A DNA stretch of 64,000 nucleotides from an uncultured Chloroflexia bacterium (GTDB taxonomy: Bacteria > Chloroflexota > Anaerolineae > Anaerolineales > UBA4823), in assembly GCA_963793095.1 (NCBI GenBank), contig CAWBYY010000011.1:277034-341033 (forward strand). Reading direction: 5' to 3'. A program made the translations under genes and the position numbers. Below the pieces are notes generated by a model. That model had not been told where the DNA came from, did no database searches, and was given only the letters and a program-made list of their open reading frames with translations. Of the stretch, positions 4,025 to 55,904 are shown piece by piece. How positions within the stretch are numbered: the first letter of the stretch is position 1; each line of letters begins with the position of its first letter.

Positions 4025-4051
4025 TTTTTAAACTCACACGTTCGAATTGCA

Positions 4052-5469: not shown

Positions 5470-5647
5470 TAATTTATCCCTAATAATGGAATTGTATTTT
5501 AGTTGCCGGATTGAATTATTAAAACCTAAAAAAATCTCTTTATGGTGATATCACTATGTTATATGCTTATTCTATAAATTACCTGAATGCTTATAATTTA
5601 GTTATTGTCCATTTTCATTAAAAAGCCAAAATTATTGAAAAATCTTA

Positions 5648-6586: not shown

Positions 6587-6638
6587 ATATAGATTTTGAA
6601 ATTCACTCTATTGTTTAATTTTGTTTCCATTACAGGTC

Positions 6639-7969: not shown

Positions 7970-8050
7970 ATTCATCTCCTTGCAAAAGATATTTACAACA
8001 GAAAATCGGCACCACAATAACGAATATATAAATCAGTGAAATGAAATTTC

Positions 8051-8092
8051 CAAAAATGGGCGAGCCTGGAAGGGTGAACCTGAGGCTCGCCC
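8051..8092 (-). terminator. Rho-independent terminator downstream of the SBP gene
   Basis: Minus strand: GGGCGAGCCU ... AGGCUCGCCC, a 10-bp stem followed by AUUUUUG, about 25 nt after the stop at 8118. Confidence 0.75.
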
Positions 8093-8117
8093 ATACCCCA
8101 ATAAAACAGATTATGAA

Positions 8118-10418: not shown

Positions 10419-10545
10419 TTTCTACTCCTTTTTAAATAATTCTAAATAAAATCGAATTTATAAAAAATCTTGATATTATTTTGTTATCACCTCCTTATTC
10501 TGATGAAAAAAATGTTTAACCTCATAACTGGTTGTTTCTAAAAAT

Positions 10546-11370: not shown

Positions 11371-11470
11371 ATATACCCATTATTGTTTTTAGTTAAATAA
11401 AGATGTAGATTTTTAAGCCGCTTTGAATTACTAAAAAATAAATACTTATAAGAGGAGTACTGTGAACCAG

Positions 11471-12238
11471 TTAAATTTCATCAGAAGAGCCTAAAAGGAC
11501 AAAACCCAAATCGCGTCTCATTTCCTGAAATTCTGGTTGAGTTTTCAGGTCTGGAGGCCTCGGCCTTTCGAAAGGTATATCGACAATGCATTTCACTTTT
11601 CCGGGCTCATTTGACATAACAACAACTCGATCTGACATATATAGTGCTTCTTCCAAATCGTGGGTAACAAATATCACGGTGATTGGATTATTGCTCCAAA
11701 TATTTAAAAATTCAGTTTGTAATTTAGCTTTTGTTAGGACATCTAAAGCAGCAAAAGGCTCATCCATCAGTAATACTTCTGGACTAGTTGCAACAGCTCT
11801 GGCAACATCAACTCTTTTGCGCATGCCTCCTGATAATTGCCGCGGGAACAAGTTTTCAGCATCTTTCAATCCAACTAAATTAATGTGATGGTCTGCGATC
11901 CTTTTCATTTCCTCAGGTTGTAATTTTTGGATCCTCAACCCGTATTCAATGTTTTGTCTGACCGTATACCAAGGGAAGACTGCATCATCTTGAAAAACCA
12001 TTGTTCGATCTGGTCCCGGATGAGTTATTTCATTGCCTTTTAAAAAGACTTTCCCTTCTGAAGGTGGTAAAAGCCCAGCAATAATATTTAATAATGTTGA
12101 TTTTCCACAACCCGAAGATCCAACAATTGTGACAAATTCTTGATCGAGGATGTTCAAATGAAAATCTTCAATAATCCAATGATGATCGTAGCGGAAATAA
12201 ATATGCTCTAAATTAATAATGACTTTCTCTTCAATCAT
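11471..12238 (-). CDS. ABC transporter ATP-binding protein
   Basis: Walker A GSSGCGKST, signature LSGGMRKR, Walker B LLMDEPF. Confidence 0.9.
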   Translation of the reverse strand: MIEEKVIINLEHIYFRYDHHWIIEDFHLNILDQEFVTIVGSSGCGKSTLLNIIAGLLPPSEGKVFLKGNEITHPGPDRTMVFQDDAVFPWYTVRQNIEYGLRIQKLQPEEMKRIADHHINLVGLKDAENLFPRQLSGGMRKRVDVARAVATSPEVLLMDEPFAALDVLTKAKLQTEFLNIWSNNPITVIFVTHDLEEALYMSDRVVVMSNEPGKVKCIVDIPFERPRPPDLKTQPEFQEMRRDLGFVLLGSSDEI

Positions 12239-12304
12239 AATTGCATAATAATAGGTGTTGATCCGGGTCTTTTTGTGTGAGTGCTGAATAAATTATTAAA
12301 ATAT

Positions 12305-13072
12305 TTAAATTTTGGCTAAGATTAATTTGACTCCCAGATGACGAATCCGTTCAGCATCACCAGCTGAAATATTAGTATCGGTAATGAGATAGTCGACCTC
12401 TTCAACAGGCGCGATTAATGCTGTTCGGACGATGCCAAATTTTGAACTATCTGTTACCACAATCAAATTGCGAGCAATGCTGATGATATTGCGATCCGTT
12501 TCTGCATCTTTTAAAGATTCTGAAGTGATTCCCTGATCAATATCAATTGCAGAGACACCCATGACTGCCTTGTCTATTCGCAAACGGTTAAGCGTAAAGT
12601 TACCTATTTCACCTACAAGAGTCAGGTGTTTAGGTACGAGTGTGCCTCCTGGAACTATGACCGCAATTTCCGGGAAGTTAACCATGTAATTAATGATGTT
12701 AATTGCGCAGGTTATGACAGTAATACCATGTTTATTGGTTAAATTTCTTGCTACCTCCTTTGTGGTCGTACCGCCACTCAAAAAGATGGTGTCCCCATTT
12801 TCTACAAGATTGGCAGCATATCTGCCTACTGCTTCCTTTTCTTTGCGATTAAGTTGAGCGCGGGTCAAGATTGGCAATTCGAGTTCGAATTGGTAATAGG
12901 TGCTTGCCCCACCTCGATTTCGTTGTATGAGATTTTTTTCAGACAGGTCTCTTAAATCACGGCGAATTGTAGCTTCGCTTACTCCAAAACGTGCACTCAG
13001 ATCATCAACACCAATATCTTCAGTTTCGCGAATGAGGCTCAGAATTTGCCGTCTTCTTTGATTAACTTTCAT
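12305..13072 (-). CDS. DeoR/GlpR-family transcriptional repressor
   Basis: N-terminal HTH (VSEATIRRDLRDL) plus a C-terminal DeoR sugar-phosphate sensor domain. Confidence 0.85.
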   Translation of the reverse strand: MKVNQRRRQILSLIRETEDIGVDDLSARFGVSEATIRRDLRDLSEKNLIQRNRGGASTYYQFELELPILTRAQLNRKEKEAVGRYAANLVENGDTIFLSGGTTTKEVARNLTNKHGITVITCAINIINYMVNFPEIAVIVPGGTLVPKHLTLVGEIGNFTLNRLRIDKAVMGVSAIDIDQGITSESLKDAETDRNIISIARNLIVVTDSSKFGIVRTALIAPVEEVDYLITDTNISAGDAERIRHLGVKLILAKI

Positions 13073-13381
13073 TGAATATATAAAATTACTAAACGGATAT
13101 TTAAGAAATCATCAAAATATGATAATATAATAGCAATATTATGATCAATTGTCAATCAAAATAAACAAAAATTTGACTATTATGTGCAAATTGGATATAA
13201 ACTGATCAATTTAGGTTCCCATTATTATATAAAACTGATTTTTGTATGAACATCAATATAATGTGTATGAGATCATATTTCTATTCTGGTTGATCCTCAT
13301 CCTTGCTTAAAAATTAATCGTAAAAAAGGACTAAATTTGATAAAAGTAAAAACCGAAATTATTTTGCATAATGGAGTTTAA

Positions 13382-14285
13382 TTGATGAGCAATAAAGATG
13401 TCGATATTCTCGTGGTGGCGGAAATCAACCCAGATATCATTCTTACTGGGAATGTTGAGCCAGATTATTCCCAGGTTGAGACTCTAATTGGTGATTATTC
13501 TCTTACAATTGGGAGTTCGGGTGCAATCTTTGCATGTGGTGCAAGCCGATTGGGATTGAAAGTTGCTCTCATTGGAATTGTTGGAGATGATTACTTTGGC
13601 CATTTTATGCTAGATAGTTTAAAGTTGCGAGGTGTTGATGTAACAGGGTGCATAATTGATCCCCAAAAAAAAACAGGAATTAGTGTCATCCTTAATACGC
13701 GGAGAGGATCGTGCTATTCTTACATATACAGGTACAATCCAGGCTTTACGTAGTCAAGATGTTGACCGGTCATATTTAAGACGCGGACAACACCTGCATG
13801 TATCCAGTTGTTTTTTACAAGAGGCACTGCGCCCCGGGCTCCCCAAGTTATTAACCGATGCACATCATAATGGCATGAGTGTCTCTGTAGACACAAATTT
13901 TGATCCAAAAAACGAGTGGAATCATAATATTTTAAAAATTCTCTCCCAAACGGATATTTTCTTCCCAAACGAGCATGAAGCATGTGCAATAAGTCGGCAG
14001 CAAGATGTTTATAATGCTCTATCCTTTCTTGCAGGTATTGTTCCAGTTGTGGCAATTAAAAGAGGTAGATTAGGAGCAATTGTCCAAGATAACCAAAATC
14101 AGTATTCTTGTGAAGCTTTTCCTGTAGAAGTTGTCGACACTACGGGTGCTGGTGATAGTTTTAATGCAGGTTTTTTATATGGATATTTGCATTCTTTTCC
14201 AATAAATGATGCGCTGCAATTGGGTTGTGCTTGTGGTGCAATATCCACCCAATCCATCGGGGGAACCGATTCTAACCGACTTTAA
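13382..14285 (+). CDS. PfkB-family carbohydrate kinase, one frame break
   Basis: ORFs 13382..13753 and 13656..14285 are the N- and C-terminal parts of one kinase (DTTGAGDSFNAGF motif). The frame changes between ..GISVILNT and GEDRAILTY near 13697-13703. Confidence 0.75.
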
Positions 14286-14412
14286 ACGAGACTTTAGAAT
14301 TTATATCAAAACAGGAATCTCAACCTCAAAATAATCGATAGTAAACAATAAGGTTATTTGGTTGGTCAGGATTTTCTAATGGTAATTGCAATTAAAATCA
14401 AAAGGTAATCGT

Positions 14413-15738
14413 TTGGTGTATCCTGACCCAATTTCTAATTTAACCTCACTACAAAAAAGGTTTTCCAGTTGGCATATGTTCAGTATGTTCATACAACCCT
14501 TATGAATTGGAAGCAGTTTTGCGAAAAGCCAAAAAAGACGGAAAACCAGTACTGGTAGAATCAACTTCCAACCAGATCTACCAGATTGGGGGTTAAACAG
14601 GAATGACTCCAATCTTGTTTGTGAGTTTATTAAAGAACTTAAGGAAAGAATAGGAATTAATTCTGATCAGGTGATGTTGGGCGGAGATCATCTTGATCCC
14701 TACTCAAGGCTAAATGAATCTGCAAGTGTTGCTATGGAAAAAGCGACTCAATTGGTTATAGATTATGTACAAGCACGTTATTTAAAAATTCATTTGGATG
14801 CAAGTATGTGCCTGGGCGGAGATATGAAAAGCGTGCTACCAGTCGAGATTGTAGCAGAACGCACCGCTGTTTTATGCAGAGAAGCAGAAGAAACCTGGAA
14901 CAGATTATCAGATGTGAAGATCCTCCATATTATGTGATTGGAACAGAAGTGCCAGCCCCGGGTGGTGCCCTTAATGAAGTTGATGATTGATTTAGATGTA
15001 ACAAGTGTTGAAAGCGAGAAAGAGATGCTAGAGGCCACTAAAAAATCCTTTGTAAGAAATGGTATACATTCAACTTGGGAACGTGTCATTGCTTTGGTTG
15101 TCCAACCTGGTGTGGAGTACAGTGTCACATCCGTTCATTCCTATAATTGAATCGCAGCTGAAGAATTATGAGAATATGTTAAAAATGTCCAAGGTCTGGT
15201 GTTTGAGACACATTCTACAGATTATCAGAAGCGTAGCGCACTCAAAAAAATGGTAGAAGATCAATCTGCAATATCTGAGGGTTGGGCCAGCACTTACATT
15301 TGCCTTTAGAGAAGCTGTTTTTGATTTAGAATTAATTGAGAATGAGTTGTATTCTGGTGATAAAAAATTTACGCTTTCAAAGTCACAGGCTATAGTTGAG
15401 ATGGAGATGATGAGAATTCCAGCATAATGGGAGTCATACTATAAAGGAACTCTGAACAGCAAAGGTTTGCCCGTCGTTTAAATCTTAATGACCGGATTTG
15501 ATATTGCTGGGCAAAACCAAGGGTCAAATCATCTTTTAATTGTTTGTTTGAGAATCTACAAAAACAGCCAACCCCGCTTTCACTTATAAGCCAGTGTCTA
15601 CCTTATCAATATCGGAAAGGGTTTAATAGACAAGCCAATTTACGCATTTCACCATTAGAATTGATTGTGCATAAGATCAATGGAGTGGTGGATGACTATT
15701 ATTATGCTTATTATCTGGATGTCCGGGAGATTAAATGA
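14413..15738 (+). pseudogene. GatZ/KbaZ/AgaZ-like tagatose-bisphosphate aldolase subunit, heavily degraded
   Basis: Collinear with E. coli GatZ across several frames (PVGICSVCS, VLVESTSNQ, GGDHL, KIHLDASM, VIGTEVPAPGG, VVQPGVE, ETHSTDYQ, VGPALTFA). In-frame TAA at 14594-14596 and 15425-15427, TGA at 15499-15501, and at least five frame changes. Confidence 0.8.
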
Positions 15739-16098
15739 AAAGTTGATTTGCTACCCGAGAATTCAAATGCCGAAGAGCATCAGATTAATAAATACAATGC
15801 TGGCAAGTTTCTGATATTTGGATTGATTATCAAAAGGATTTAGCACCTCTGTATTCTAACCCTAGATGCTGGTATACACATCACATTCCCAGATGTGCAA
15901 GGTAATTGATTATTAAGGTTTTTTCCAAGTAATTTCTGAAAATCCAAACAGCAAATATATATATACACAAAATAAAAAACCCATAATGTGTGGTGCTTTT
16001 AAACTTAAATCTGGTATTGAATATTCTTGGCACTTTCAGCAATTATTTTTACATTAAATATCTTGAATTTACCAAGTTTCAAACCAAAAGTTATAAAA

Positions 16099-32808: not shown

Positions 32809-34460
32809 TCAGTAAGTCATGGCGCAGCCGTCGGCCCTTGGATCGCTGCCAGCGCAAAGCACCCCGTCTTGCGGATTTCTGAGGATGATCTGTCCCAGGC
32901 CGTATAAGTGAAACAACCCCTCCGACCCGGGCTGGATATCGTGACCTATATCAGAAAGTTTCCGGAAAACTTCAGCAGGCATGCCGCTTTCAAGCGCCAG
33001 CTGCCCTCCCGCTTCTCCGTTAGTAATGCAGAAGCGTGGGCGGTCAAGAGCGGATTGAGGGTCCAGGCCGTCGTCGATCAGCCCGGTGAGCACCTGCACA
33101 TGCCCCTGAGGCTGCATGAACCCGCCCATAACTCCGAAACAGGCGTACAGTTCTTCCTTAGGATCGCCTCTAGTTCTGCCCTCAAGCGGGGTTGTGACCA
33201 GCCCGGGGATGATCGTGTGGTAAGGGCGTTTTCCCGGTTCGAGCGCATTGGGGTGGGCAGGGTCCAGGCTGAAGTTTGCGCCGCGGTTCTGCAGGCTGAA
33301 TCCCCAGCCAGGCGGCACAATGCCGGTGCCGAAGCCCATATAGTTACTGTTGATGAAAGAACAGGCGTTGCCAGCCCCATCCATAACGCTCAGGTATACC
33401 GTATCTGATGAAGCAAAAGGGCTGCCTTTAACCTGGTCAAGGGTGGCTCTTTCCCGGTCGATCAATTTGCGTCTCTGTTCTGCGTAATCTTTTGAAAGCA
33501 GGGCTTCGACCGGCGCCGGATTAAATTCCGGATCGGCGATATACCCGCACGCATCTGCAAAAGCCAGCCGCATTGCCTCAATCTCAAGGTGGAGCCGGGA
33601 GGCGGAAAGCGGTTCAAGCGAACCCAGGTCAAAGCCTTCCAGGATGTTGAGCGCCAGCAGGGCGGCCAGCCCCTGCCCGTTGGGGGGGCATTCCCAGACC
33701 CGCAGCCCGCGGTAGATGGTGCTGATTGGCGTCACCCATGCGCTGCGGTGGGCGCCAAGGTCTTCTTCACTCAGGCAGCCGCCCGCTGTCCGGACCACAT
33801 TCACAACTGCGCGCCCGATCTCCCCGCTGTAAAACCCGTTTTTTCCCTCCCTGGCGATGACTTTGAAGGAGCGCGCCAGGCCGGGGTTTCTGAACAACTG
33901 GCCCGCCTGGGGGGCTTCCCATTGACTGTCAATTCAAGGCCTCCCGGAGCTGTCCGGAGTTGTTTTTCAAACCCTTTTTCCCAGAAGTGGGCGGTCACCG
34001 GCGAGACCGGAAAACCATTTTCAGCCAGGCGGATCGCCGGGCTCAGCACCTCAGCCATGGACAGGGTCCCGAAGCGTTCAACCAGGTCGCACCAGCCGGC
34101 CGGTGCGCCCGGGACTGTGATCGTGTAGGGATGGAATGGTGGCAGTTCCCGGTCCAGGCCTTCCCGGCGCAGGCGCTCTATTGTCAAGCCTTGCGGGGCG
34201 CGACCGGAACCATTGAGGGCGTGGACACTGCCGGAATCGGCCTGATAATAAAGGGCAAAACAATCCCCGCCCAGTCCGGTTGAGGTGGGCTCGGTGACAT
34301 TCAGGGCTGCAGCTGTCGCAACGGCCGCGTCAGCGGCGTTCCCGCCGCCTGACAGGATCTCGAGCCCGGCCGCGACCGCCAGCGGTTGGGAGGTCGCAAC
34401 CATGCCGCGCGTCCCGTAAACCGGTGAACGTGCGCTATTATTCGAGCTATAGGACTTCAA
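32809..34460 (-). CDS. ggt: Gamma-glutamyltransferase, one frame break
   Basis: ORFs 33801..34460 (N-terminal) and 32809..33897 (contains the SDTVYLSV autoprocessing Thr region) are consecutive. The break is at the G6 run 33909-33914. Confidence 0.85.
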
Positions 34461-35516
34461 TTCCAGCGCCTTCGATTACCTCCCCGACAAGCCACAGTTC
34501 CTGCCCTGCCGCTGACCCTGCCTGGAGCATATCATTCAGCCGGTCTGCAGGGACGGAAATCAGCAAACCGCCGCTGGTCTGGGCGTCAAACAGCAGCATC
34601 CTGGAGGGCTCATCAATTTTGGAGGCAAAATCCACATATTCAGCATAATAAAGCCGGTTATCAATGGATCCCCCAGGAAATACCCAATCCTTTGCATACC
34701 CTGCTGCACCGGAAAGAAAGGGGATGCTTTCAAAGTCGAACCGGAACCTGACCCCAGAGGCGGACGCCATTTCATAAGCATGACCCAGCAGGCTGAAACC
34801 GGTGATGTCAGTACCCGAGCGGACTCTAAACCGGCTGGCGAGTTCTGAAGCGGTTTTGTTCAGGCGTTTCATCCAACCAACGGCATTCTCCAGATATTCG
34901 GCTTGAACAATCCCGCGCTTGAGCGCAGTGGAGATCGTCCCGGTGCCGATTGGTTTGCTGAGTACCAGCCTTTCCCCGGGTGCGGCGTTCATTTTTGTAA
35001 TGATTTTGTCCGGTTCGACAAAACCAAGCACGATCAGGCCGTATTTCGGTTCTTTGTCCTGGATTGTGTGACCGCCGGCGAGCACAACGCCGGCCTCCTG
35101 AGCCTTTTCTGCGCCGCCGCGAAAATCTCAGCGCTGATCTCGCCGGGGAGGTCCGGAGGCAGGGCGGCGATATTCAAGGCCAGGAAGGGCTGCCCGCCCA
35201 TGGCGTAAACGTCTGACAAAGCGTTGGCAGCCGCGATCGCGCCGTAGTCATAGGGGTCATCCACAACCGGGGTGAAGAAATCCGTGGTCGCAACCAGGGC
35301 GCGATCGTCGTCGATCCGCCAGACCGCGGCGTCGTCGCTTTCACCCAGGCCGACCAACAAATCGGGGTAGTCTGCAGATTGGTATATCTCTTTCAGCGGG
35401 CGCAGCACCTGCGCCAGAGCTTCAGCGCTCAGTTTCGAAGCTCAACCGGCGCAATCCGAAAGACTGGTCAGGCGGATCATTTTCCCGGAAGGGGATTTGG
35501 TTCCGTTGTCATCCAT
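34447..35516 (-). CDS. selD: Selenide, water dikinase (selenophosphate synthetase); in-frame UGA (Sec) at 35442-35444; one frame break
   Basis: ATG at 35516 gives [38 protein letters not shown].., in frame with track ORF 35034..35408. The UGA aligns with Cys17 of E. coli SelD (GAGCGCK). AIR-synthase-like body. The frame break at the A4 run 35122-35125 joins it to ORF 34447..35085. Confidence 0.8.
35417..35444 (-). other. SECIS-like hairpin starting within the selD UGA
   Basis: Minus strand: U-GAGCUUC-GAAACUGAGCGCU-GAAGCUC, a 7-bp stem with a 13-nt loop. Confidence 0.55.
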
Positions 35517-35595
35517 TTTTCACCATTTACGGGTCAAATTATAAACCCAAACACCCATATGATAAAAACGGCTTGGTTGAAGGAAAAAAGGATGT

Positions 35596-36393
35596 GTGTT
35601 AATATCCCCAATCGTGAAGATTCTGGCATTTTTTGCGCATCCGGATGATGAAACCATGCTCTCTGGGGGAGCGCTTGCGATCCTGGCTCAATCGGGGATA
35701 GAGGTTCATTACTTAATTGCGACAAGAGGCGAAGGGGGCGAGAGAGGCGAACCGCCTCAATGCGAGCCAGAGCAACTCGGGGAACTGCGTGAAAGGGAAG
35801 TTGCCTGCGCGGTTGAGAATCTGGGCGGTAGCAGCCTGGCTAACCTGGGTTATCCCGACCCGGTTGTTGGACCCAGCCAGGAACTGTACCCGTTCACAAC
35901 CGACCTGGCGCGTTTAGCCGCTCAGGTCACCGGCCAGGTAAAAAGGGTGCAGGCGGATGTCTTAATTTCACACGGCACAAACGGCGAGTACGGTCACCCG
36001 GCGCACCTGCTCTGCAATAAGGCCGCTCGCCTGGCGGCCGCCTCCCACAAGGACCATCCTTTCTGGCTGTATACAGTTGCCGCCGCATACCCGGGCCACC
36101 CCAAACCGCGTATCCTGAACCGGTCTGATCCGGCTCACCTTGTAATTAATGTCCGGACGGTTCTATATAGAAAAATTCAGGCTGCCTTGTGCCATAAAAC
36201 CCAGCAGGCTTTATTCATCAGGCGCGCTTCAATCGAGGCGGGGCGCAGGCTGAAAGTGCCGGAAGTTATTTTAAAGGAGGAGAGTTTGCACCGGGCTTAC
36301 CCGGCGAAGGGGGGTGCGGGGGGTGATCCGCTGGAGGAGTTTTTATCAGCCTGGGCAATCCGCCAGCCAATTAACTTTCAATCCAGATCGTAA
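35596..36393 (+). CDS. PIG-L/LmbE-family N-acetylglucosaminyl deacetylase
   Basis: [17 protein letters not shown] zinc-binding motif. The start may be GTG a few codons downstream of 35596. Confidence 0.8.
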
Positions 36394-36867: not shown

Positions 36868-37872
36868 TCAAGATGGTGGCAGGGGCAGGCCGATGGCCTC
36901 TTTCACTTGCCGGATAGTCTCTCTGGCGATCAGGCTGGCCCGTTTCTGTCCGTCGCTGAGAATATCCCACACCAAACCGGGGTCCCGCGCCAGTTCCGCC
37001 CGCTTCTCCCGGAAAGGTCCCAGGTGGGCGTTCAGGCTGCCGGCGAATAAACGTTTGCAGTCAACGCAGCCAATTTCAGCCCGGCGGCATTCAAAGTTTA
37101 TTTTTTCGACTTCAACTTCGGATGTGAAGATCTTATGCATTGAAAAAACGTTGCAAACATCCGGGTCTCCCGGATCAGATCTGCGCTTGCGTTGGGGGTC
37201 TGTAACCATCATCATCACCCTGCGGGTGGTCTCTTCGGGGGTTGCAGCCAGTTCAATGTGATTATCCAGGCTCTTGCTCATTTTTTGCATGCCATCGATG
37301 CCGAGCACTTTGGGTACCTCAGTCGCTTTCATCCGGGGTTCGACCAGTACATTCGTGTTGTAGCGGTGGTGGAACGAGCGAACCACCTCGCGGGCAAACT
37401 CGAGATGGGGAGCCTGGTCGACACCTACCGGCACGGTATCGGCTTTATATAATGCAATGTCAGCCGCCATCAGGACCGGGTATCCAACCAGCCCGTAGTT
37501 AATGTTCTGGGGCTGCATGCGGACCTTATCCTTGAATGTCGGCAGGTCGGTCAACTTGCCAAGCGGTGTGACCATTGAGAAGAAAATATGCAGTTCGGTG
37601 ACTTCCGGAACCTGGGATTGGATGAAGACAATCGTCTCTTCCGGCCGGATGCCAGCTGCCAGCCAGTCGAGAGCCATCTCATACGTGTTCTGGTTAAGAT
37701 CCTCAGTGGTTTTAACGGTTGTCAGGGCGTGAATATCGACAATGCAGTACACACAGTCATATTCATCCTGCAGGGCGACATAATTTTTAATCGCGCCCAG
37801 ATAATTCCCCAGGTGCTGTTTGCCGGTCGGTCTGGCTCCGGAGAACACCCTGCCTTTCTTCTTATTGGTCAT
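36868..37872 (-). CDS. trpS: Tryptophan--tRNA ligase
   Basis: 334 aa with a class I HIGH-like PTGKQHLGNYLGA and KMSKS. Confidence 0.95.
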   Translation of the reverse strand: MTNKKKGRVFSGARPTGKQHLGNYLGAIKNYVALQDEYDCVYCIVDIHALTTVKTTEDLNQNTYEMALDWLAAGIRPEETIVFIQSQVPEVTELHIFFSMVTPLGKLTDLPTFKDKVRMQPQNINYGLVGYPVLMAADIALYKADTVPVGVDQAPHLEFAREVVRSFHHRYNTNVLVEPRMKATEVPKVLGIDGMQKMSKSLDNHIELAATPEETTRRVMMMVTDPQRKRRSDPGDPDVCNVFSMHKIFTSEVEVEKINFECRRAEIGCVDCKRLFAGSLNAHLGPFREKRAELARDPGLVWDILSDGQKRASLIARETIRQVKEAIGLPLPPS

Positions 37873-38120
37873 GCGTGCTCCTTGAGATAATTGCGTACCA
37901 GTTTGTTGATCTCGCCTTTATCAACATGGCGGTTTGTCCCCAGTTTCGAATACAAAAGGTCGCCGTTAACCGAAAATTCAAACCGGCCTCCATCTGAAGG
38001 AACCAGGGTGAACGAGTCTGTTTTGAATTCGAATTCACTCAACACATCGGCCATCACACTGACAGCTCTATCAGTGTAATGTCAAGCAGCGCAGTAGACC
38101 AGTTCAATTTTCATTAACAT
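37869..38120 (-). CDS. SelW/Rdx-family selenoprotein (CxxU), in-frame UGA at 38082-38084
   Basis: ATG at 38120 with AAAGGAG 7 nt upstream gives MLMKIELVYCAA-U-HYTDRAVSVMADVLSEF..GGRFEFSVNGDLLYSK... The track shows only the part after the UGA (37869..38057). The stop overlaps the trpS start (ATGA). Confidence 0.75.
38052..38084 (-). other. SECIS-like hairpin immediately 3' of the selW-like UGA
   Basis: UGA-CAUUACACUGA-UAGAGCUG-UCAGUGUGAUG, an 11-bp stem (one G-U pair) with an 8-nt loop. Confidence 0.65.
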
Positions 38121-44667: not shown

Positions 44668-46290
44668 TTACAGGGTCGATATCGCTGAAGCGAGGTTGCG
44701 CCTGAATTCCGGCTGGACGAATTTCGCCCAGGCTTCAGGGAAAGTTGACAGCAGCCTGTCGCGTTCTTCAATTTTATATACAAGGTAAGATTCAATACCC
44801 TCCAGGGGTATCCCCTCTTTTTTAATAGCCTTATTACCCAGAAACTTTCCCAGGAGTTCAATCGCGACCTGGGCATCTACCAGATCGCCGAGGTGGTCCT
44901 GCATTTGTTTAAACTGGTCGATTAATTCTTTTGATTCCGGGCCCAGGACCTCCCGGAAGTACTCGACCGTGTAGCGCAATTTCTTAATTTCCAGGCGGAG
45001 CGCGTGGAGAAGGTCTAAGTCAGCATCTTCAATAAAGGGGTCGAATGAGCGCACGACCGCCAGCCGCTCGTAGATCAGAACAGGAGCCAGCTCGGTGACC
45101 GTCCTTGGAAAGGGGATATCCGTTCGCATCTTGCGGACACCCGCCCCAGGCGTCTTGAGAAAGATATTGAATTTGCGCTTGAAGTCAGAGTAGTCTTCGC
45201 TGTCCAGATACTCAAGCATCTCGGCGCGAGCAGACTGGCGCTGGTTGCGCCAGGATTCCAGGAGTGGGTCCAGATCCGATTTTGCCTCATCGGGCAGCGA
45301 ATCCAGGTAAACCTGGGATTTCTCCATAAAAACATCCAGGTCCCTGACACTGCCAAGTTTGCGTCCGGTCGACCTGAGCCCTTTTAAATGGGGTTTTAAG
45401 GAGCCGGGTTTAAAAGCGGTTGCGAATACTTCAAAAGCCGCCCGCAGGCGCCGGGTGGCAACCCGCATATCATGAAGCCCTTCGATGTCTTCCCCTAATC
45501 TTGTGGCTTCTTCGTGGCTGAGCATCGCTGCGAACTGGTAGCTCATAATTTTACGTCCGGCTTCAGCAAGCTGGTCGCCTGATTCGACCCCGGGATTTTC
45601 CATCGGTTTCGGAAAGGGCACCATTTTGGTTGCGGCTTCCTCCACTTCCATCACCTTTATCTTTGGAAAACCGATCTTGAACCACAATCTGGCGCTCTGC
45701 TGGGCTTCTGCTGCATCAGCCGTCGCCTCAGGTCCTTCCACGACTATCCAGATTCCATTTCTGGACGATTCAATATGGATAATGCTTGTGCTCTGGGTGC
45801 CGCAGAAGTTCAAGCCCTCCGCTATACAAAGAAGGGCGCTGATTGTCTGAGCTTCACGCTGTTGAATTGGGGAGAGATTCAGATTATTCAAATCCTTGCG
45901 TTTAACATTCCCCTGCTGGATGGCGATAACCGCAGCGAGCACATTCAATTCATCCCGCGATAGTTCCCGGTCTATATTTTCAGATACAAACAGCTTGATG
46001 TCTTTGAACGGGTTTTTCTTCTTGCCTGGAAGCGGGCTGTCGAATAAAAGGCAGGCATACCCCAGGATTACCCGGGAGCTGTCCTCCAATTCGTGAAGAG
46101 GCCTTGTGCGCTCAAAAAGGGTTAGAGCCTGTTCTTTTATATATTCGTTGTTTGGCGAGCTTGGTATTGTTGGCTCCCGATACACTAATTCCTGAGTTAC
46201 AGCGGATACATCTTCCTGGGGTGCTGAGCTCTCAGGACTTTGGGTAGCCTCTTCAAATTCCTCTTGGGAGTTTATTTTATCTTCATCCAT
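44668..46290 (-). CDS. CHAD-domain protein
   Basis: C-terminal half has CHAD-type helical repeats (HDMRVATRRLRAAFEVF, LGSVRDLDV, LHALRLEIKKLRY). The N-terminal 250 aa are unassigned. Confidence 0.75.
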   Translation of the reverse strand: MDEDKINSQEEFEEATQSPESSAPQEDVSAVTQELVYREPTIPSSPNNEYIKEQALTLFERTRPLHELEDSSRVILGYACLLFDSPLPGKKKNPFKDIKLFVSENIDRELSRDELNVLAAVIAIQQGNVKRKDLNNLNLSPIQQREAQTISALLCIAEGLNFCGTQSTSIIHIESSRNGIWIVVEGPEATADAAEAQQSARLWFKIGFPKIKVMEVEEAATKMVPFPKPMENPGVESGDQLAEAGRKIMSYQFAAMLSHEEATRLGEDIEGLHDMRVATRRLRAAFEVFATAFKPGSLKPHLKGLRSTGRKLGSVRDLDVFMEKSQVYLDSLPDEAKSDLDPLLESWRNQRQSARAEMLEYLDSEDYSDFKRKFNIFLKTPGAGVRKMRTDIPFPRTVTELAPVLIYERLAVVRSFDPFIEDADLDLLHALRLEIKKLRYTVEYFREVLGPESKELIDQFKQMQDHLGDLVDAQVAIELLGKFLGNKAIKKEGIPLEGIESYLVYKIEERDRLLSTFPEAWAKFVQPEFRRNLASAISTL

Positions 46291-46420
46291 GGCTCTTTGG
46301 TCAATTCCTTCCCGGATAAGCTATTCTTTTAGTTGTGGCCAACTTTTATTATATATTGTTTCTGGATCGAATTGAAGAAAATTAAGGAAATCGAATAGTT
46401 AAAGAAAACCGGATTTTGCT

Positions 46421-48574
46421 TCATTCCCCGTAAGTTTTTCTGTGCCAGTCGATCAACCAGGTCTGGACATCCAACGGCGTCTCACCATCTTTCGGATTGA
46501 TAAAGGTGTAAGTCCCATCCGGATTCATACTGCGCACCTTCCGGTTGGCGATAAAGTAAGCGTCCAGCACTTCGGAATGCAGGTAATGAATAAGGCGCGC
46601 ATCCTGGACCGGGAAGAGTACCTCAACCCGGCGGTTGATATTGCGCGGCATCAAGTCCGCGCTGCCCAGGTAAATTTGCGGCTCTCCGCCGTTGCGGAAA
46701 TAATAAATGCGGCTGTGCTCCAGAAAGCGGCCGACCACACTGGTCACCCGAATATTATCGCTAATCCCCCTGACTCCCGGTCTAAGGCAGCAGATGCCGC
46801 GTACGATCAGATCAATTTTTACTCCAGCCTGAGAGGCTGTATAAAGATTGCGGATGATGCGTGGATCCACCAGGGCGTTCATCTTGAAAATCAGGTGCCC
46901 TTCCTCTCCGTTTCTGGTGTGCAGGATCTCGCGTTCGATCAACCATTCCATCTTTTCACGCAGGTTTATCGGGGCGACCAGCAGTTTGCGGTATTCCTGC
47001 TTGGCAGAATAACCGGTGAGGTAGTTGAACAGGTCGGTCGCATCCGCGCCGATGTCCTCGTCACAGGTGAACATGCCAATGTCTTCATAAAGCTGGGCAG
47101 TGATGGCGTTGTAGTTGCCGGTCGCCAAGTGGACATAACGGCGGATATGCTCTCCTTCTTTGCGGATAACCAGGGCGATTTTTGAATGCGTTTTTAATCC
47201 CAGCAACCCGTAAATAACATGGACACCCTCTTTCTCCAGCATCCTGGCCCAGCCGATATTGCTCTCTTCGTCAAAGCGGGCTTTTAACTCGACCAGAACC
47301 GCGACCTGCTTGCCATGCTCGCGCGCTTCCATTAATGTTTTGACGACCGGCGAGTTGCTGCCAACCCGGTAAAGGGTCTGCTTGATCGCCAGCACATTGG
47401 GATCGCGGGAAGCGGTTTTCAGGTAGTCAACAACCGGTTGGAAGGAATGGTAGGGGTGGTGGACCAGGATATCTTCGCGGCGCATCGTCAAAAAAATATT
47501 ACTGTCATGAAGTTCGTGTCTCAAAAGGGGTTGGATTACCTGTTTTAATGGAGGATCCTTTAAATCGTACCGGTCTATTTTGTGCAGGATTATCAAGCCG
47601 CCCAGACCCAGATGGCCATTAAGATTGTAGATATCGTTGCGGTCGATGGCGAGGTTTTCAATCAGGATCTCGCGTACATGGGAGGGCATGGCGTCGTTAA
47701 ATGCAAGGCGCACCACTGAGCCAAATCGCCGCTGGCGGACGCTTTGCTCCATGGTCTCCAGTAAGTCGGAGGCTTCCAGTTCCTGGATAACCATATCCGC
47801 ATCGCGCGTGACCCGGAACGGGTGCGATTCAACGATCTCCATACCCGGAAAGAGTTTTTCCAGGTTTGCAGCGATCAGCTCTTCCAGCCAGATGAAGTAG
47901 TGGTTAAACGGCGTGGTGCCATTTTTTCTAACCGCTCCAGAGGATCTTTTTATGGGAATCAGGCGCGGCAGGCTGGTCGGCATTTTTATCCGGGCGAAAT
48001 GTTCCTGCCCGGATTCATCCCGGATCACAACCGCCAGGTTTAAACTGAGATTGGATATATGCGGAAATGGGTGACCCGGATCAAAGGCAAGAGGGGTCAG
48101 GACAGGAAAAATGACCTCCTCAAAATAAGTATCGACATTTTCCCTCTGGCGGCTGCTCAGCGCATCATAGTCCAGCAGGTGGATCCCGTTTTCATCGAGC
48201 TGCGGGATGAGTTTTTCCTGCAGACATACTCTGGCTTCAATCATCAAGTCCAGCGCAACCCTGCGGATTTCAGCCAGCTGTTGTGCTGGAGTCATCCCGT
48301 CAGCCGGGACGTCGATAACACCGGCCGCAATCTGCTTTTTTAACCCGGCCACCCGGACCATAAAGAATTCATCCAGGTTGGATCCCAGAATTGAAATGAA
48401 CTTCACTCTCTCCAGCAGAGAGTTGCTCTCATCCTGGGCTTCCTGCAGCACCCGGCGCTGGAATTCGAGCAGTCCCAGCTCGCGGTTCACATAAAGCTGG
48501 GGGTCCATCAGGTCTGGCAAGTCGCTGGTCTCAATTTGATCAACAGTTATTTCGCTCATGCGTGCTTCCAACAA
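46421..48574 (-). CDS. ppk: Polyphosphate kinase 1
   Basis: 717 aa with the PPK1 N/H/C1/C2 layout (NLDEFFMVR, THSKIALV). The start may be the ATG at 48559. Confidence 0.95.
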   Translation of the reverse strand: MLEARMSEITVDQIETSDLPDLMDPQLYVNRELGLLEFQRRVLQEAQDESNSLLERVKFISILGSNLDEFFMVRVAGLKKQIAAGVIDVPADGMTPAQQLAEIRRVALDLMIEARVCLQEKLIPQLDENGIHLLDYDALSSRQRENVDTYFEEVIFPVLTPLAFDPGHPFPHISNLSLNLAVVIRDESGQEHFARIKMPTSLPRLIPIKRSSGAVRKNGTTPFNHYFIWLEELIAANLEKLFPGMEIVESHPFRVTRDADMVIQELEASDLLETMEQSVRQRRFGSVVRLAFNDAMPSHVREILIENLAIDRNDIYNLNGHLGLGGLIILHKIDRYDLKDPPLKQVIQPLLRHELHDSNIFLTMRREDILVHHPYHSFQPVVDYLKTASRDPNVLAIKQTLYRVGSNSPVVKTLMEAREHGKQVAVLVELKARFDEESNIGWARMLEKEGVHVIYGLLGLKTHSKIALVIRKEGEHIRRYVHLATGNYNAITAQLYEDIGMFTCDEDIGADATDLFNYLTGYSAKQEYRKLLVAPINLREKMEWLIEREILHTRNGEEGHLIFKMNALVDPRIIRNLYTASQAGVKIDLIVRGICCLRPGVRGISDNIRVTSVVGRFLEHSRIYYFRNGGEPQIYLGSADLMPRNINRRVEVLFPVQDARLIHYLHSEVLDAYFIANRKVRSMNPDGTYTFINPKDGETPLDVQTWLIDWHRKTYGE

Positions 48575-48612
48575 GAACTTTCTCGATTGTCAAAGATAGG
48601 GAGAAATTTCTT

Positions 48613-49386
48613 TTACTTTTTCTCCTTCTTTTTCTTTTCAGCGCTTTTCAGGTTGCGTTTTTCTCTTTTGAACGGGTCGGTTTCGAGTTCAAGGATAAAT
48701 TTGTCGACGATGGTTCTCAGAATCTTTATGCGGGCATAATATTTTGAATCGCCCTCGACCACAGTCCAGGGCGCGGTGATCGTGCTGGTTTTAAGCAGCA
48801 TCTCATTGACCGCGGCTTCATACTGATCCCATTTTTCCCGGTTGCGCCAATCTTCATCGGTAAGCTTCCAGGCTTTAAGTTTGTCCACATTGCGGGCTTC
48901 AAACCGCCTCAGTTGTTCTTCCTTGCTGATTTGCAGCCAGAATTTAAACAGGATTGTCCCAAAGTCGACAAGCTGGCGTTCAAAATAGTTGATCTCGCGG
49001 TAGGCGCGTTTCCATTCCTTTTCGGTGCAGAAACCTTCGATTCTTTCGACCATCACCCGCCCGTACCAGCTGCGGTCAAATATGGCGATTTGACCGGTCT
49101 CCGGCAGCCGGCGCCAGAAACGCCACAGGTAATGGCGCACAGCCGAATCGCCTTTTGGAGCCGCAATCGGGTATACCACAAAACCACGCGGGTCAATTTT
49201 CTCCGTAATCCTGCGGATCGCGCCGCCCTTACCGGCCGCATCCCATCCTTCGAACACGATTATCACCGGACGCTCCTGGACATATACCTGGTAAGCCAGT
49301 TCGTGCAGGGCGACCTGATACTTGATCAGTGAGGTTTTATATTCTTCATGCTCCAGAGCTGGCGAGAGGTCGATTGTTTGCAGCAT
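48613..49386 (-). CDS. Polyphosphate kinase 2 family protein with a Lys-rich C-terminal tail
   Basis: FEGWDAAGKGG P-loop, DRSWYGRV. Tail KREKRNLKSAEKKKKEKK. Confidence 0.9.
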   Translation of the reverse strand: MLQTIDLSPALEHEEYKTSLIKYQVALHELAYQVYVQERPVIIVFEGWDAAGKGGAIRRITEKIDPRGFVVYPIAAPKGDSAVRHYLWRFWRRLPETGQIAIFDRSWYGRVMVERIEGFCTEKEWKRAYREINYFERQLVDFGTILFKFWLQISKEEQLRRFEARNVDKLKAWKLTDEDWRNREKWDQYEAAVNEMLLKTSTITAPWTVVEGDSKYYARIKILRTIVDKFILELETDPFKREKRNLKSAEKKKKEKK

Positions 49387-49387
49387 T

Positions 49388-50209
49388 TTATTCTCCGGAT
49401 GTCACTTCAGCTTGCTCTTCTTCCACCCTCCATTCTGGCTGGGAAGCATGTTCTTCGGAAACCGGCGTGGTTTTTGGCGTTAGTTCTAAGGGTTCGGATT
49501 CCAATCCGAGAGCAGGTTCGAGGGCGTTTATCACTGTTTTATAAATTTTGACCCAGGTATGGCGGCGATCGGTCGCCTCCACGATAGTCCAGGGGCCCCA
49601 TTCAGTTTCGGTTCTCTCAAAAGCCTCTTCGTATGCCAGGGTCCACTCGTCATAATTGCGGTGGTGCTCCCAGTCCTCGGCTGTGACATGCCAGGCGGTC
49701 AGGGGGTCTTTGGTCAATTTTTTGAAACGGCGTTTCTGTTCCTCCCTGCTGATGTGCAGGAAAAATTTGATGATCAGGTACCCGTCGTCGGCCAGCGTGC
49801 GTTCGAAGTCAACGATATCCCGGTAAGCCCGGCGCCATTCCCGTTCCGGTATGAGGTTCTCAACCCTTTCAACCAGAACACGCCCGTACCACGAGCGGTC
49901 GAAAATCACCCATTCACCCAGCCTGGGTATTTTCAACCAGAAACGCCATAACCAGGGCCTTTTTTTCTCATACGTGCGGGCAGCCCGGATGGGATAGAGT
50001 TTGTAGCCGCGCGGGTCGAGATGCTGGGTCAGTTTCTGGATGGAAGTCCCTTTCCCGGCGGCATCCCATCCTTCAAACAGGATAATCACCGGTATATTCG
50101 CGTCCCAGGACAATTTCTGGATCGTATAAAGGCGGTTGGCAAGCGTTGGCATGATTTGTTTGTAGGTCGCCTTCTCGATCTTCTGGTTCAGATCAATTTT
50201 GTCCAGCAT
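49388..50209 (-). CDS. Polyphosphate kinase 2 family protein
   Basis: FEGWDAAGKGT P-loop, DRSWYGRV. 1-nt spacer to the next PPK2 gene. Confidence 0.9.
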   Translation of the reverse strand: MLDKIDLNQKIEKATYKQIMPTLANRLYTIQKLSWDANIPVIILFEGWDAAGKGTSIQKLTQHLDPRGYKLYPIRAARTYEKKRPWLWRFWLKIPRLGEWVIFDRSWYGRVLVERVENLIPEREWRRAYRDIVDFERTLADDGYLIIKFFLHISREEQKRRFKKLTKDPLTAWHVTAEDWEHHRNYDEWTLAYEEAFERTETEWGPWTIVEATDRRHTWVKIYKTVINALEPALGLESEPLELTPKTTPVSEEHASQPEWRVEEEQAEVTSGE

Positions 50210-51370: not shown

Positions 51371-52654
51371 TTAATTCGAAGGGCCTTCTTCGGCTTCCTG
51401 TAATTTTTCTTCGACCATCTCGCGCAGCTCTGCGAGGTCGTGCAGGACCTCGTATGCGCCGTGCCACTGCGAATAATCCGGGCCCTGCATCCAGACCCCG
51501 AATTTGGCGGTGCGCCCCCAGTGGTGCCACAGGTTGAAGAAGGTGAAGTCTATCGTCTCATCGAAGGGCTCGGAAGTCAGCAGCCCCTGGTCCCTCAGAG
51601 GCTGGATGATATCCTGGCTCTCCACCACCCATTCGTTAACCCTTTCAGTGGCTTTATCAGCTGCCGGGTAGAAGTCATCAATAAAGGTTTGTGAGTGGCA
51701 TTCCAGGCATACTCCCTGCATGCGGACTTTGTTGTCCTGCCAGGCTGGTCTGCGGGTGCTTACCGGAGCAAAAAGGTACCAGGTCAGCCGGTCGCCGATG
51801 TCGTGAGATGTACCGCTTGTGCCAAATCCGCTCATATGGCAGATTGCGCAGGTGGGGGCCGGGAAGTCCTCGACAGTCAGAGTGCCAGGTTCCGCCTCCC
51901 AGTTCCAGGTATATCCCATGGTATTGTAGGCAATTCCGTGAGGGGACTCGATATATATCTCGTACTGCGGGTGGTCGGGGCCGATATGGCAGTAGTTGCA
52001 GGTTTCCGGCTTTCGGGCCTGTTCCAGGCTGAATTCATGCCTGAGATGGCACATCTGGCACTGGCCGGGAGAACCATCCACCCCGGGTTTACCTATATCG
52101 TGGCAGGCCTCGCAGGTGAAGCGGGTCATCGCTTCGCCTTCAAGCCTGTGAATGTCGTTGCGGGATTTATCCGGCGAATAGCTTCCTTCCGGTATGGCTT
52201 CGTACATTGCAAGCAGCTCCGGGGACAGGTCTTCGGAGCCTGCATAGGCTACATAAGCCGGTATGCTGTGACGGCTCTGGTGGAATTGGGCCACTTCAGC
52301 AGCGTGGCATTTCTGGCACATTGTGGTTGTGGGCGAATTCAGGACGTGGGTGCCCTCGTGTTCAATCGCGCCGGGGTAGTCCGCCGCCACTTCGTGGCAG
52401 TCCTGGCAGGCAACCTCGGCAGCCGCCATTGAACTGTGGCTGTACTGTTCGATAATGCCCGGTGAGGTTTTGCGGTGGCAGATAACGCATTCGTTATCGC
52501 TGTTGGCGAGCACATCAATTTCTTCAGTCTCGACCGGCGTGCCTGCCCTCCCGATCGCCATGATGATCAAAGCTGCTCCCAGCACAACAATCACCGCAAC
52601 CAGTCCGATTATGAGCGCTTTTAAAAATCCTCTGCTGTCCGAACCTTCACTCAT
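51371..52654 (-). CDS. Octaheme c-type cytochrome, hydroxylamine-oxidoreductase (HAO)-family-like, N-terminal membrane anchor
   Basis: Eight CxxCH motifs (CVICH, CQDCH, CQKCH, CEACH, CQMCH, CNYCH, CAICH, CLECH), an N-terminal TM helix and an HAO-like C-terminal helical region (FFNLWHHWGRTAKFG). ATG at 52654 after GGAG. Confidence 0.8.
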   Translation of the reverse strand: MSEGSDSRGFLKALIIGLVAVIVVLGAALIIMAIGRAGTPVETEEIDVLANSDNECVICHRKTSPGIIEQYSHSSMAAAEVACQDCHEVAADYPGAIEHEGTHVLNSPTTTMCQKCHAAEVAQFHQSRHSIPAYVAYAGSEDLSPELLAMYEAIPEGSYSPDKSRNDIHRLEGEAMTRFTCEACHDIGKPGVDGSPGQCQMCHLRHEFSLEQARKPETCNYCHIGPDHPQYEIYIESPHGIAYNTMGYTWNWEAEPGTLTVEDFPAPTCAICHMSGFGTSGTSHDIGDRLTWYLFAPVSTRRPAWQDNKVRMQGVCLECHSQTFIDDFYPAADKATERVNEWVVESQDIIQPLRDQGLLTSEPFDETIDFTFFNLWHHWGRTAKFGVWMQGPDYSQWHGAYEVLHDLAELREMVEEKLQEAEEGPSN

Positions 52655-52721
52655 TTTGGATTCTCCAAACAATTGTATTAATGTTTTCCCAGTATTCCCC
52701 TAATATTATTTTAATGCTTCT

Positions 52722-52783: not shown

Positions 52784-53900
52784 CTATTTAACCACCAAAT
52801 CGTGGTCAAACCCGGTCAGAAGAAGCGGGTCGCCGTCTGTGACAACCAGGATATCCTCGATGCGGATCCCGAATTTTCCCGGAAGGTAAACCCCCGGTTC
52901 AACCGAAAAGACCATACCCGGGGCAAGAACTGTCTGGCTGGTTGAAGTCACCCAGGGCGGTTCGTGGCCCTCCAGGCCAAGCCCGTGCCCTGTCCGGTGG
53001 ACAAAATACTGGTCAAGGCGGTTTCTCCTGAGGGAGGGCGCGGGCTGCCCGGTCGACATTTGAGGCGGTGCTTCCGGACAGCGCGGCCGCTCTCCCGGCC
53101 ACATTGGCATCAAGTACAGCCTCGTAGGCCTCTGAAACTTCCTGCGGGGGGTCACCCAGGCAGACCATCCTGGTGATGTCGGACTTATATCCCCTGAGCG
53201 TCGCCCCGATGTCAAGGATGACCGGTTCGCCTGTTTTCAACACCCGGTCGCTGGTCTGGTGGTGAGGGAAAGCGCCGTTGGGCCCGGACGCAACCAGGCT
53301 GAAATCAACTTTTTCGGCGCCATTATCGTAGAAAAAATTAGCAATCTGGTTAGCCACCTGCCTTTCAGTGGCTCCGGGAACACATGCATCTATACCTGCC
53401 TGCATGGCTCTGTCTGCCAGCGCCGCCGAACGGGCCAGTATATCGATTTCATCCTGGGATTTGATAATTCTAAGGCTGGAAATGATCTCCCCGGCCGGCA
53501 GCGATCTTACCGGCAGGATTTTACTCTGGACCAGCAGCAGGTGCTCAGCCCGCATGCTGTTATCCGCCGCCAGGACTATACTGGATGGGAGCGCCAGCTG
53601 GCTGAGGGCGGCATCGATCGCATCCAGGGGACCGTGTTCATCCGCCCACCGTCTAACAACCAGGCCGGTATGGGCTTCAACCTGGTCGGCATTGAGGTCA
53701 GGCACAACCAAACTGAAACCATTCTGGCTTACCAGCAGCGCGCAGAAACGCTCGTCCATCATCGGGGCAAAACCGGTCAAGTAGCGCATGTTGGCGGTCG
53801 GGGCGATAAGGGTTAGATCGACCTCGGACCGGATCATTATTTCCTGCAGGCGTACAATCCGTTCTTGAAAGACAGCGGTAACCTTCATGGTAATGTTCAC
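52784..53900 (-). CDS. M24-family Xaa-Pro peptidase, one frame break
   Basis: ORF 53013..53900 (N-terminal and start of the pita-bread fold) plus ORF 52784..53215 (HRTGHGLGLEGHEPP, VEPGVY, IRIED). The break is near the G3 runs at 53032-53038. Confidence 0.8.
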
Positions 53901-55255: not shown

Positions 55256-55552
55256 TTAAGGATCCATATGGATGGGCCTTGATCCGCCGGCGATACTTGG
55301 AAGAATCATCAGGCGGTCGTTTTCGCCCAGCCGCGTTTCAAGCCCCTCCAGGTCATTGATATTATCTTCATTCAGGAACAGGTTAATGAAAGGGCGCAGG
55401 GCTCCTTCATCATTAAAAATGTGTTGTTTCATTTCCGGGTACTGCTCCACCAGGTCGTCCATTGCTTCGGATACGGTTGACCCGCAGAGTGTGATTTCAC
55501 TCTGCCCGGCGGTGTAGTTCCTCAATGGTGTGGGTATTCGTAAATTTGGCAT
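55256..55552 (-). CDS. cysO: MoaD/ThiS-family sulfur carrier (CysO-like) with an 8-residue extension after the Gly-Gly
   Basis: MPNLRIPTPLRNYT...LPSIAGG-SRPIHMDP, 98 aa. The internal ATG of track ORF 55256..55729 was chosen by family length. The stop abuts the moeZ start. Confidence 0.75.
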   Translation of the reverse strand: MPNLRIPTPLRNYTAGQSEITLCGSTVSEAMDDLVEQYPEMKQHIFNDEGALRPFINLFLNEDNINDLEGLETRLGENDRLMILPSIAGGSRPIHMDP

Positions 55553-55613
55553 TGATTTACTCGAAATTGAACAGGATACAGGTTTTATTTTGGTATATAA
55601 ATATACTCCATTT

Positions 55614-55904
55614 TCAGCAGCCTGCTCGCTTGACGACAGATTCACAGGAGGAAGCAGGCCATATTTCGATCCTGCCAGCCTGTTTAAAAGGCTGCATAAA
55701 ACCTTCAATTTGGGCGGGGTTATCAGCATCCATAATCAGCACAAAGGTGTGTCTGTCATCCAGGACCGCCTCGCTGAGTATCTGCAGGCCGAATTTTTCA
55801 GCGTTTGCTCTATCGATGTGCTTCATAAGCATTTCCCCCTGCTGGGGGTCTTTTGCCGGACATGCCTCCGGATTGTGCTGGTGCTGTACAAAATAAAGCG
55901 ACAT
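55614..55904 (-). CDS. Small conserved-looking hypothetical protein (96 aa) inside the cysteine operon
   Basis: Intact GC-rich ORF between mec and cysO. Cys at ..PEACPAKDP.. and ..SSCESVVKRAGC-stop. Confidence 0.5.
   Translation of the reverse strand: MSLYFVQHQHNPEACPAKDPQQGEMLMKHIDRANAEKFGLQILSEAVLDDRHTFVLIMDADNPAQIEGFMQPFKQAGRIEIWPASSCESVVKRAGC

Follow-up and report, generated by a model that had tools for sequence, protein, structure and literature searches.

The window analysed in this study is a 64,000-nt stretch of contig CAWBYY010000011.1 (GCA_963793095.1, positions 277,034-341,033) from an uncultured Chloroflexia bacterium, and all coordinates given below count from its first letter. 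On its minus strand it carries selD, the gene for selenide, water dikinase (SelD), whose reading frame contains a TGA codon putatively read as selenocysteine (Sec), is followed by two hairpins of which one resembles a selenocysteine insertion sequence (SECIS), and is interrupted further downstream by the absence of a single base. The features of the gene are as follows:

34447..35516, minus strand: selD (selenide, water dikinase), complete coding region with a putative Sec-UGA and one 1-nt frame break, from translation, TIGR00476 and NF002098, and PDB matches

35538..35565, minus strand: sigma-70-like promoter site, TTATCA-16 nt-TATAAT, about 22 nt 5' of the selD ATG, a pattern match from a consensus scan with 10 of 12 positions matched

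35514..35516, minus strand: start codon ATG, the first start after an in-frame stop two codons upstream

35442..35444, minus strand: in-frame UGA, residue 25, putatively read as Sec, from alignment to 3u0o and 2yye and from counts of TGA and Cys codons in relatives

35417..35443, minus strand: hairpin GAGCUUC(G)/(U)GAAGCUC, nt 2-28 from the U of the UGA, named in an earlier reading of the DNA (the sequence-only reading), from folding and pairing counts

35399..35415, minus strand: SECIS-like hairpin with stem GGCGCAG/CUGCGCC and loop GUG, nt 30-46 from the U of the UGA, from folding, the bacterial SECIS model and covariation

35121..35122, minus strand: frame break through the absence of one G (coding strand TTTT[G]CGC), from alignments to the related sequences L001, L002, L003, L084 and L085

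The TGA at 35444-35442 is the sole in-frame TGA of the frame opened by the ATG at 35516. This frame cannot open further 5', since a stop lies two codons before the ATG, and the internal Met13 is not the start either, because relatives carry an extension of 12-16 residues with a conserved PSGK/R motif ahead of IRLT. With one base inserted after the T4 run (35125-35122), a selD frame of 356 codons is obtained, ending at a TAG stop (34449-34447). The mechanical list of open reading frames (ORFs) splits the gene into 35034..35408 and 34447..35085, of which the former begins at a GTG (35408) 12 codons past the TGA. The sequence-only reading had placed the ATG, the TGA, the hairpin 35417-35443 and the run on the minus strand, and all of these coordinates proved to be correct.

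Comparisons with hidden Markov models and structures were made with the repaired selD protein as query, in which U was written as C. The repaired SelD scored 365.7 bits against TIGR00476 (cutoff 125), covering positions 1-309 of the 311 in this profile, and 341 bits against NF002098 (cutoff 299), and it aligned with both Escherichia coli SelD (3u0o, 7e-71, residues 12-352) and Aquifex aeolicus SelD (2yye, 2e-64, residues 12-356) with no gap over the repaired break. HMMER, aligning the protein with 3u0o, sets the TGA codon (residue 25) opposite Cys17, which confirms the position claimed for it earlier, and Lys28 opposite Lys20. Mutant work in E. coli is said to have found the equivalents of Cys17 and Lys20 to be required for SelD activity. 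The equivalent of Lys20 and the regions of the AIRS/AIRS_C fold are common to the window SelD and E. coli SelD, while the latter is a Cys17 form whose gene has neither recoding nor SECIS and the window selD is putatively recoded. The SelD of A. aeolicus (PDB 2yye/2zod) and that of Haemophilus influenzae belong to the same family and have Sec or Cys at the same position of the N-terminal loop, where G-U-A-S-K of the window SelD corresponds to the motif G-C-A-A-K of A. aeolicus SelD as crystallised; this crystallised protein is presumably a Sec-to-Cys mutant of a native enzyme with Sec there. In the sequence as given the reading frame is interrupted, a G being missing at 35122/35121; apart from an unbroken frame, every testable trait of the SelD family and of a bacterial selenoprotein gene was found.

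The UGA codon among relatives

Relatives of the gene were sought at two levels. Proteins were obtained from a search of a 5.8-billion-protein collection, for which the counts below rest on the 120 matches listed, and related loci were obtained by scanning a set with one genome for each GTDB species, which yielded 80 loci. The latter are mostly from Anaerolineales/Chloroflexota, the closest being metagenome-assembled genomes (MAGs) of Anaerolineales/Anaerolineaceae with 60-70% identity. DNA was read for these 80 loci, three near-identical contigs and the window, thus for 84 sequences, and the motif around the Sec site could be placed in 83 of them. The codon at this site is TGA in 64 of the 83 and TGC or TGT in the remaining 19; the flanking peptide, IRLT(S/T)LSxCAG*ASKL, is conserved before and after the TGA with varying third codon positions, and the amino acids encoded by the 24 codons 5' of the UGA are conserved in at least 60 loci. 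A pattern of TGA and Cys codons within a conserved flanking peptide, as found here, is the usual hallmark of a Sec codon. A Cys three residues before the Sec is a trait of this Anaerolineae (Chloroflexota) clade (C22-A-G-U25 in the window SelD, a CxxU arrangement, with Cys22 at 35451-35453), and in Cys-type relatives it appears as C-A-G-C; it differs from the C-G-C-K or U-G-C-K arrangement (C-G-C-K in E. coli). An alternative genetic code, in which UGA would specify Trp or Gly, was considered and rejected: UGA acts as a stop elsewhere in the window, for example at the end of the neighbouring Rdx gene, and homologs have Cys at the site.

The annotation of the clade might suggest that the UGA is a true stop, that SelD starts at the GTG at 35408 and that the upstream frame is non-coding, for public gene calls for the closest relatives begin past the UGA. 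Among the 120 nearest proteins listed, 117 are calls of 313-331 aa with 86-92% query coverage, and the two of these short calls that were read as sequence (P0006 and P0013) both begin directly past the UGA; the absence of Sec machinery from the window, described below, would likewise agree with a stop. However, a protein initiated at this GTG would be without the N-terminal loop bearing the equivalents of Cys/Sec17 and Lys20, which E. coli SelD reportedly requires. The conservation at the protein level of the 24 codons 5' of the UGA, with third positions free to vary, also argues against a non-coding upstream frame, as does the fact that homologs show Cys at this codon and never another stop or a random residue. 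The only full-length proteins among the 120 listed (P0059, P0074 and P0105) all have Cys there (CAGCASK or CAGCAAK). Together with a hairpin 3' of the UGA that is specific to Sec-type genes, these observations make a true stop very improbable. N-terminal truncation in annotation is common to the window SelD and other Sec-containing bacterial SelD, and gene finders miss the selD start because the catalytic residue is encoded by an in-frame UGA.

Hairpins downstream of the UGA

The model of the bacterial SECIS (bSECIS) comprises an apical loop of 3-9 nt with a G in its first two positions, a stem of 4-16 bp, a UGA-to-loop distance of 16-37 nt and a minimum free energy of -7.5 kcal/mol or lower (published model, as quoted in the review PMC13188914). 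The window was scanned under this model with a simplified script of our own that considers ungapped stems, the significance of folds was expressed as a z-score against 200 shuffles, and pairing statistics were compared between 61 TGA-type (Sec) and 19 Cys-type genes.

The sequence-only reading had proposed the hairpin at 35417-35443, which starts inside the UGA, as the SECIS. The hairpin exists as described, with 7-8 bp and -8.6 kcal/mol, but its z-score is -1.35 and 15 of the 200 shuffles fold equally well. Counted over its seven pairs, 56% of cells are paired in the Sec genes and 51% in the Cys genes, and the A-U pair involving the UGA itself is present in 4 of 61 sequences. In addition, its loop of 11-13 nt starts 5-6 nt past the UGA and is thus too long and too close to the UGA for the bSECIS model, which the hairpin therefore fails. 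This hairpin is specific to this species and probably not the functional SECIS, and the conserved element is the one at 35399-35415.

The hairpin at 35399-35415 satisfies all bSECIS constraints, with 7 bp, a GUG (or G-GUG-C) loop and a spacing of 33 nt. It folds with -11.3 kcal/mol (z -3.1), a stability reached by none of the 200 shuffles, and among the 2,192 TGA triplets scanned across the window, 3.6% are followed by any passing hairpin and 0.7% by one as stable as this. Its cells are paired in 74% of cases in the Sec genes versus 47% in the Cys genes, and double (compensatory) changes occur in five of the seven pairs. By our own count from the listed sequences there are 11 distinct fully paired variants of the stem, such as GACGCAG/CUGCGUC, GACUCAA/UUGAGUC, CGCACAA/UUGUGCG and UGCUCAG/CUGAGCA, and this variation is achieved in part through synonymous changes and in part through amino-acid changes. 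RNAalifold, applied to the window and the 24 best-scoring relatives, recovers 35399-35415 and not 35417-35443. Three Cys-type relatives from Anaerolineae, which lie at an equal sequence distance (62-63% identity), form 1-3 of the seven pairs with -0.2 to -1.5 kcal/mol at this place. The hairpin is thus tied to the UGA and not to the protein sequence, and it is probably the SelB-binding element of the gene.

Like the SECIS of E. coli fdhF, the archetypal minihelix of this kind in bacteria, the stem-loop of the window selD lies 3' of the UGA inside the coding sequence and presents an apical G-G-U on a GC-rich stem. The apical stem-loop is CAGGUGCUG in the window selD as against GCAGGUCUGC in fdhF. 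The window hairpin has no evident bulged U, unlike that of fdhF, and its binding by SelB is a prediction. The conserved position of the hairpin in the window clade, 33 nt past the UGA, differs from that in other Sec-containing bacterial SelD.

The frame break in selD

The break adjoins the T4 run (A4 on the plus strand, 35122-35125), where the sequence-only reading had located it; the length of the run is unchanged, however, and the base that was lost is a G beside the run and not one of its units. In L001, L002, L003, L084 and L085 the missing G is present and the frame is intact. Exact-protein look-ups found the intact selD locus on contigs of four samples (ENA ERZ27256798, ENA ERZ27256783, Logan SRR6963591 and JGI 3300028840). 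These four contigs (L001, L002, L003 and L085), which are about 99% identical to the window and come from different samples and assemblers, read GAG ATT TTG CGC GGC (E-I-L-R-G-G), with the G that is absent in the window. The selD gene is not the only one to be split, and the other genes affected are as follows:

32809 to about 34403-34460 (start inferred from the L001 gene call), minus strand: ggt (gamma-glutamyltranspeptidase), directly 3' of selD, two overlapping ORFs

52784-53900, minus strand: M24 / Xaa-Pro peptidase, two ORFs through an extra G at 53036, intact with 367 aa in L084

13382-14285, plus strand, and 4431-5469, minus strand: PfkB-family kinase, divided within its Pfam domain between two overlapping ORFs (matching profile positions 4-109 and 98-298), and a pair of overlapping SIS-domain ORFs

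A 1-nt deletion, which blastn placed near 33905 (C7GGG to C6AGG), splits ggt relative to L001-L003, where the gene is intact with 531 aa. Two overlapping ORFs that each have a SIS domain are probably one gene. The PfkB and SIS splits, which fall outside the region shared with the related contigs and within a stretch of low GC content, may be frame errors as well. Over the approximately 30 kb that the window shares with L001/L084, seven single-base indels were counted, four of them intergenic and three breaking genes that are intact elsewhere, namely selD, ggt and the M24 peptidase gene. Overall, at least four and probably five of roughly 60 genes are split, with the surrounding sequence otherwise perfectly preserved. 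Because four assemblies with 99% identity have the gene intact and other genes of the window are split as well, the break in selD is likely to be an indel error of the assembly, as the sequence-only reading had argued.

On the other hand, the break might be real, in which case selD and the adjacent ggt would be inactivated in this strain, no selenophosphate would be made and the Sec genes (selD and Rdx) would be decaying. It would be in keeping with this that the two neighbours are both broken, that selD and ggt are syntenic in several Anaerolineae and might be lost jointly as a functional module, and that the deleted base does not lie within a homopolymer. The four intergenic indels among the seven also speak for it and against an assembly error, for real strain variation relative to the sister contigs would be enriched in intergenic DNA, and the coding three would then be true pseudogenes. 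However, the missing base aside, a single conservative V-to-L substitution separates the window selD from that of L001, no further lesion is seen, and the UGA, the hairpin, the promoter-like site and the start codon are all untouched. Unrelated genes, namely those of the M24 peptidase, PfkB and probably the SIS-domain protein, are split too; so many split genes would be unusual in a free-living bacterium but are typical of the indels that remain in a long-read assembly. In addition, the gene is intact in four further assemblies of this species. A real break is thus rather unlikely. Somewhat less likely still is that the deletion has produced a natural selD knockout with a broken ggt, in which the UGA and SECIS signals are still intact and Rdx is left as an orphan selenoprotein gene; if true, this would provide a snapshot of the loss of the Sec trait just after the loss of selenophosphate synthesis.

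It is also conceivable that the break is bridged by programmed -1 slippage, in which tRNA-Phe would move from UUC back onto UUU in A-UUU-UCG. The break does lie at a U4C stretch, and such a shift would restore the exact SelD frame (E-I-F-R-G-G). Nevertheless, the near-identical contigs and the 80 related loci need no shift, since EI(L/F)RGG is encoded there without a change of frame, and for nearly all of the 80 loci one continuous tblastn match runs across the site. Moreover, the site does not follow the canonical X-XXY-YYZ heptamer, and other genes of the window show similar single-base breaks, so that slippage seems to be an extremely improbable explanation.

Sec decoding, neighbouring genes and meaning

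Taken together, we propose, at a probability of roughly 85%, that the locus is a Sec-encoding selD with the SECIS-like hairpin at 35399-35415 and a frame break that is an assembly indel. That selD is a UGA-recoded selenoprotein gene, truncated by ORF finding as the sequence-only reading had stated, is highly probable given the position on Cys17, the covarying hairpin specific to Sec-type genes, and a TGA and an upstream peptide that are both conserved. Translation would start at the ATG at 35516, and the UGA at 35444-35442 would be decoded as Sec via SelB and Sec-tRNA(Sec), with SelB most likely recruited through the 7-bp hairpin at 35399-35415 and its G-GUG-C apical loop. Sec25 and Lys28 would thereby be placed in the N-terminal loop as Cys17 and Lys20 are in E. 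coli SelD. Gene finders begin instead at the GTG at 35408, by which the catalytic loop is lost from the gene call. Insertion of Sec at this UGA is a prediction from sequence.

Several observations weigh against this interpretation. Neither selA nor selB was found in the window by an NCBIfam scan of ten ORFs, nine of which are the longest, and neither ARAGORN nor Rfam found any tRNA, tRNA-Sec included, in the 64 kb. Rfam also gave no match, either to the whole window at gathering thresholds or to 35250-35600 at E <= 10; to our knowledge Rfam holds no model of a selD SECIS, and if so, the missing match means little. The loop of 35399-35415 begins 33 nt past the UGA, near the far end of the 16-37 nt range, and counted from the U of the UGA it starts at nt 37 as compared with about nt 22 in fdhF, thus 14-15 nt further. 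Many relatives have an extra mini-hairpin at nt 16-29, so that the functional SECIS may be composite, and this mini-hairpin is degenerate in the window (-2 kcal/mol). RNAalifold over all 61 Sec-type sequences gave no consensus structure. In addition, the hairpin at 35399-35415 is lineage-specific, being absent in deltaproteobacterial and clostridial selD.

The mini-hairpin at nt 16-29 seemed conserved on visual inspection, but its register differs between lineages, and with 58-62% of its cells paired it does not clearly exceed the controls, in which a shift of the partners by one column gives 54-62%. Sec-type selD genes of deltaproteobacterial and clostridial origin (L062, L067, L071, L074, L076, L053, L055, L060, L064 and L072) are without the hairpin at nt 30-46. 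These genes have a short GGUCC-GGC-GGACC or GGGCC-GGA-GRCCC hairpin at nt 16-28, with a spacing like that of fdhF. This suggests that there are lineage-specific types of SECIS within one gene family. Three distant relatives have a tRNA-Sec gene (anticodon TCA) no more than about 1.5 kb from a selD of the TGA type: a Planomicrobium (L040, 1657-1753), a MAG of Clostridia (L072, 4140-4236) and a MAG of Verrucomicrobiia (L081, 2698-2794).

A second Sec-type gene is found in the window 2.4 kb upstream of selD:

37869..38120, minus strand: Rdx/SelW-like selenoprotein gene, 83 aa, with the motif C10-A-A-U13 and its UGA at 38082-38084, from PF10262 (Rdx, 55.3 bits)

The Rdx gene lies directly 5' of trpS, and its stop overlaps the ATG of trpS. 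Directly past its UGA there is a hairpin at 38052-38081 with 13 bp, a GAGC loop and -17.5 kcal/mol (z -2.6), the loop of which starts 13 nt past the UGA, under the bSECIS minimum of 16 nt. Public gene calls for this gene cover only its last 61 aa, past the UGA. The presence of a second Sec-type gene with a CxxU motif at a distance of 2.4 kb lends indirect support to the use of Sec in this bacterium.

On the other side of selD, a ggt gene of the same orientation occurs at most about 3 kb 3' of selD in L005, L007, L009, L012 and L016 and in the Cys-type L087, and it directly adjoins selD in L009, L016 and L087. The pairing of selD and ggt in Anaerolineae hints at a functional link, perhaps one that involves glutathione-bound selenium. 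If so, gamma-glutamyltranspeptidase would process glutathione-bound selenium for delivery to SelD.

Elsewhere in the window, GC content is 36-42% at about 4000-16000 and 51-58% in the rest, and the low-GC stretch may be a horizontally acquired island with sugar-metabolism genes (SIS, PfkB). A polyphosphate cluster at 44668-50209 on the minus strand comprises genes for a protein with a CHAD domain, for PPK1 (717 aa) and for two PPK2 in tandem, and after it comes a gene for a multihaem cytochrome (51371-52672). An exact-sequence look-up found no match for the 157-aa ORF at 55256-55729.

SelD has been recorded as the second most widespread selenoprotein family of prokaryotes, and eukaryotic SEPHS2 (SPS2) is likewise a selenophosphate synthetase that is a selenoprotein, with the same autoregulatory logic (PMC13188914). 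SEPHS2 uses a SECIS in the 3' untranslated region together with other decoding factors, and it is likened here to the window selD by description. Sec-containing SelD is long known and widespread, and the traits of the window gene are minor variations on it; knowledge of selenium biology is thus left unchanged, and the value of the finding is mainly practical, for annotation. As 117 of the 120 nearest proteins listed are without the catalytic loop, inferring selenium use or SelD activity from the annotations of this clade is misleading. In the correct gene model, which runs from 35516 to 34447, codon 25 specifies Sec and the one missing base is put back. For Chloroflexota-type selD, the comparison points to a 7-bp hairpin with a G-GUN-C loop as the likely SECIS; it lies about 33 nt past the UGA and overlaps the codons for A-Q-V-L-R. 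The Sec-type and Cys-type relatives provide a clean contrast that could be used for training selenoprotein gene finders.

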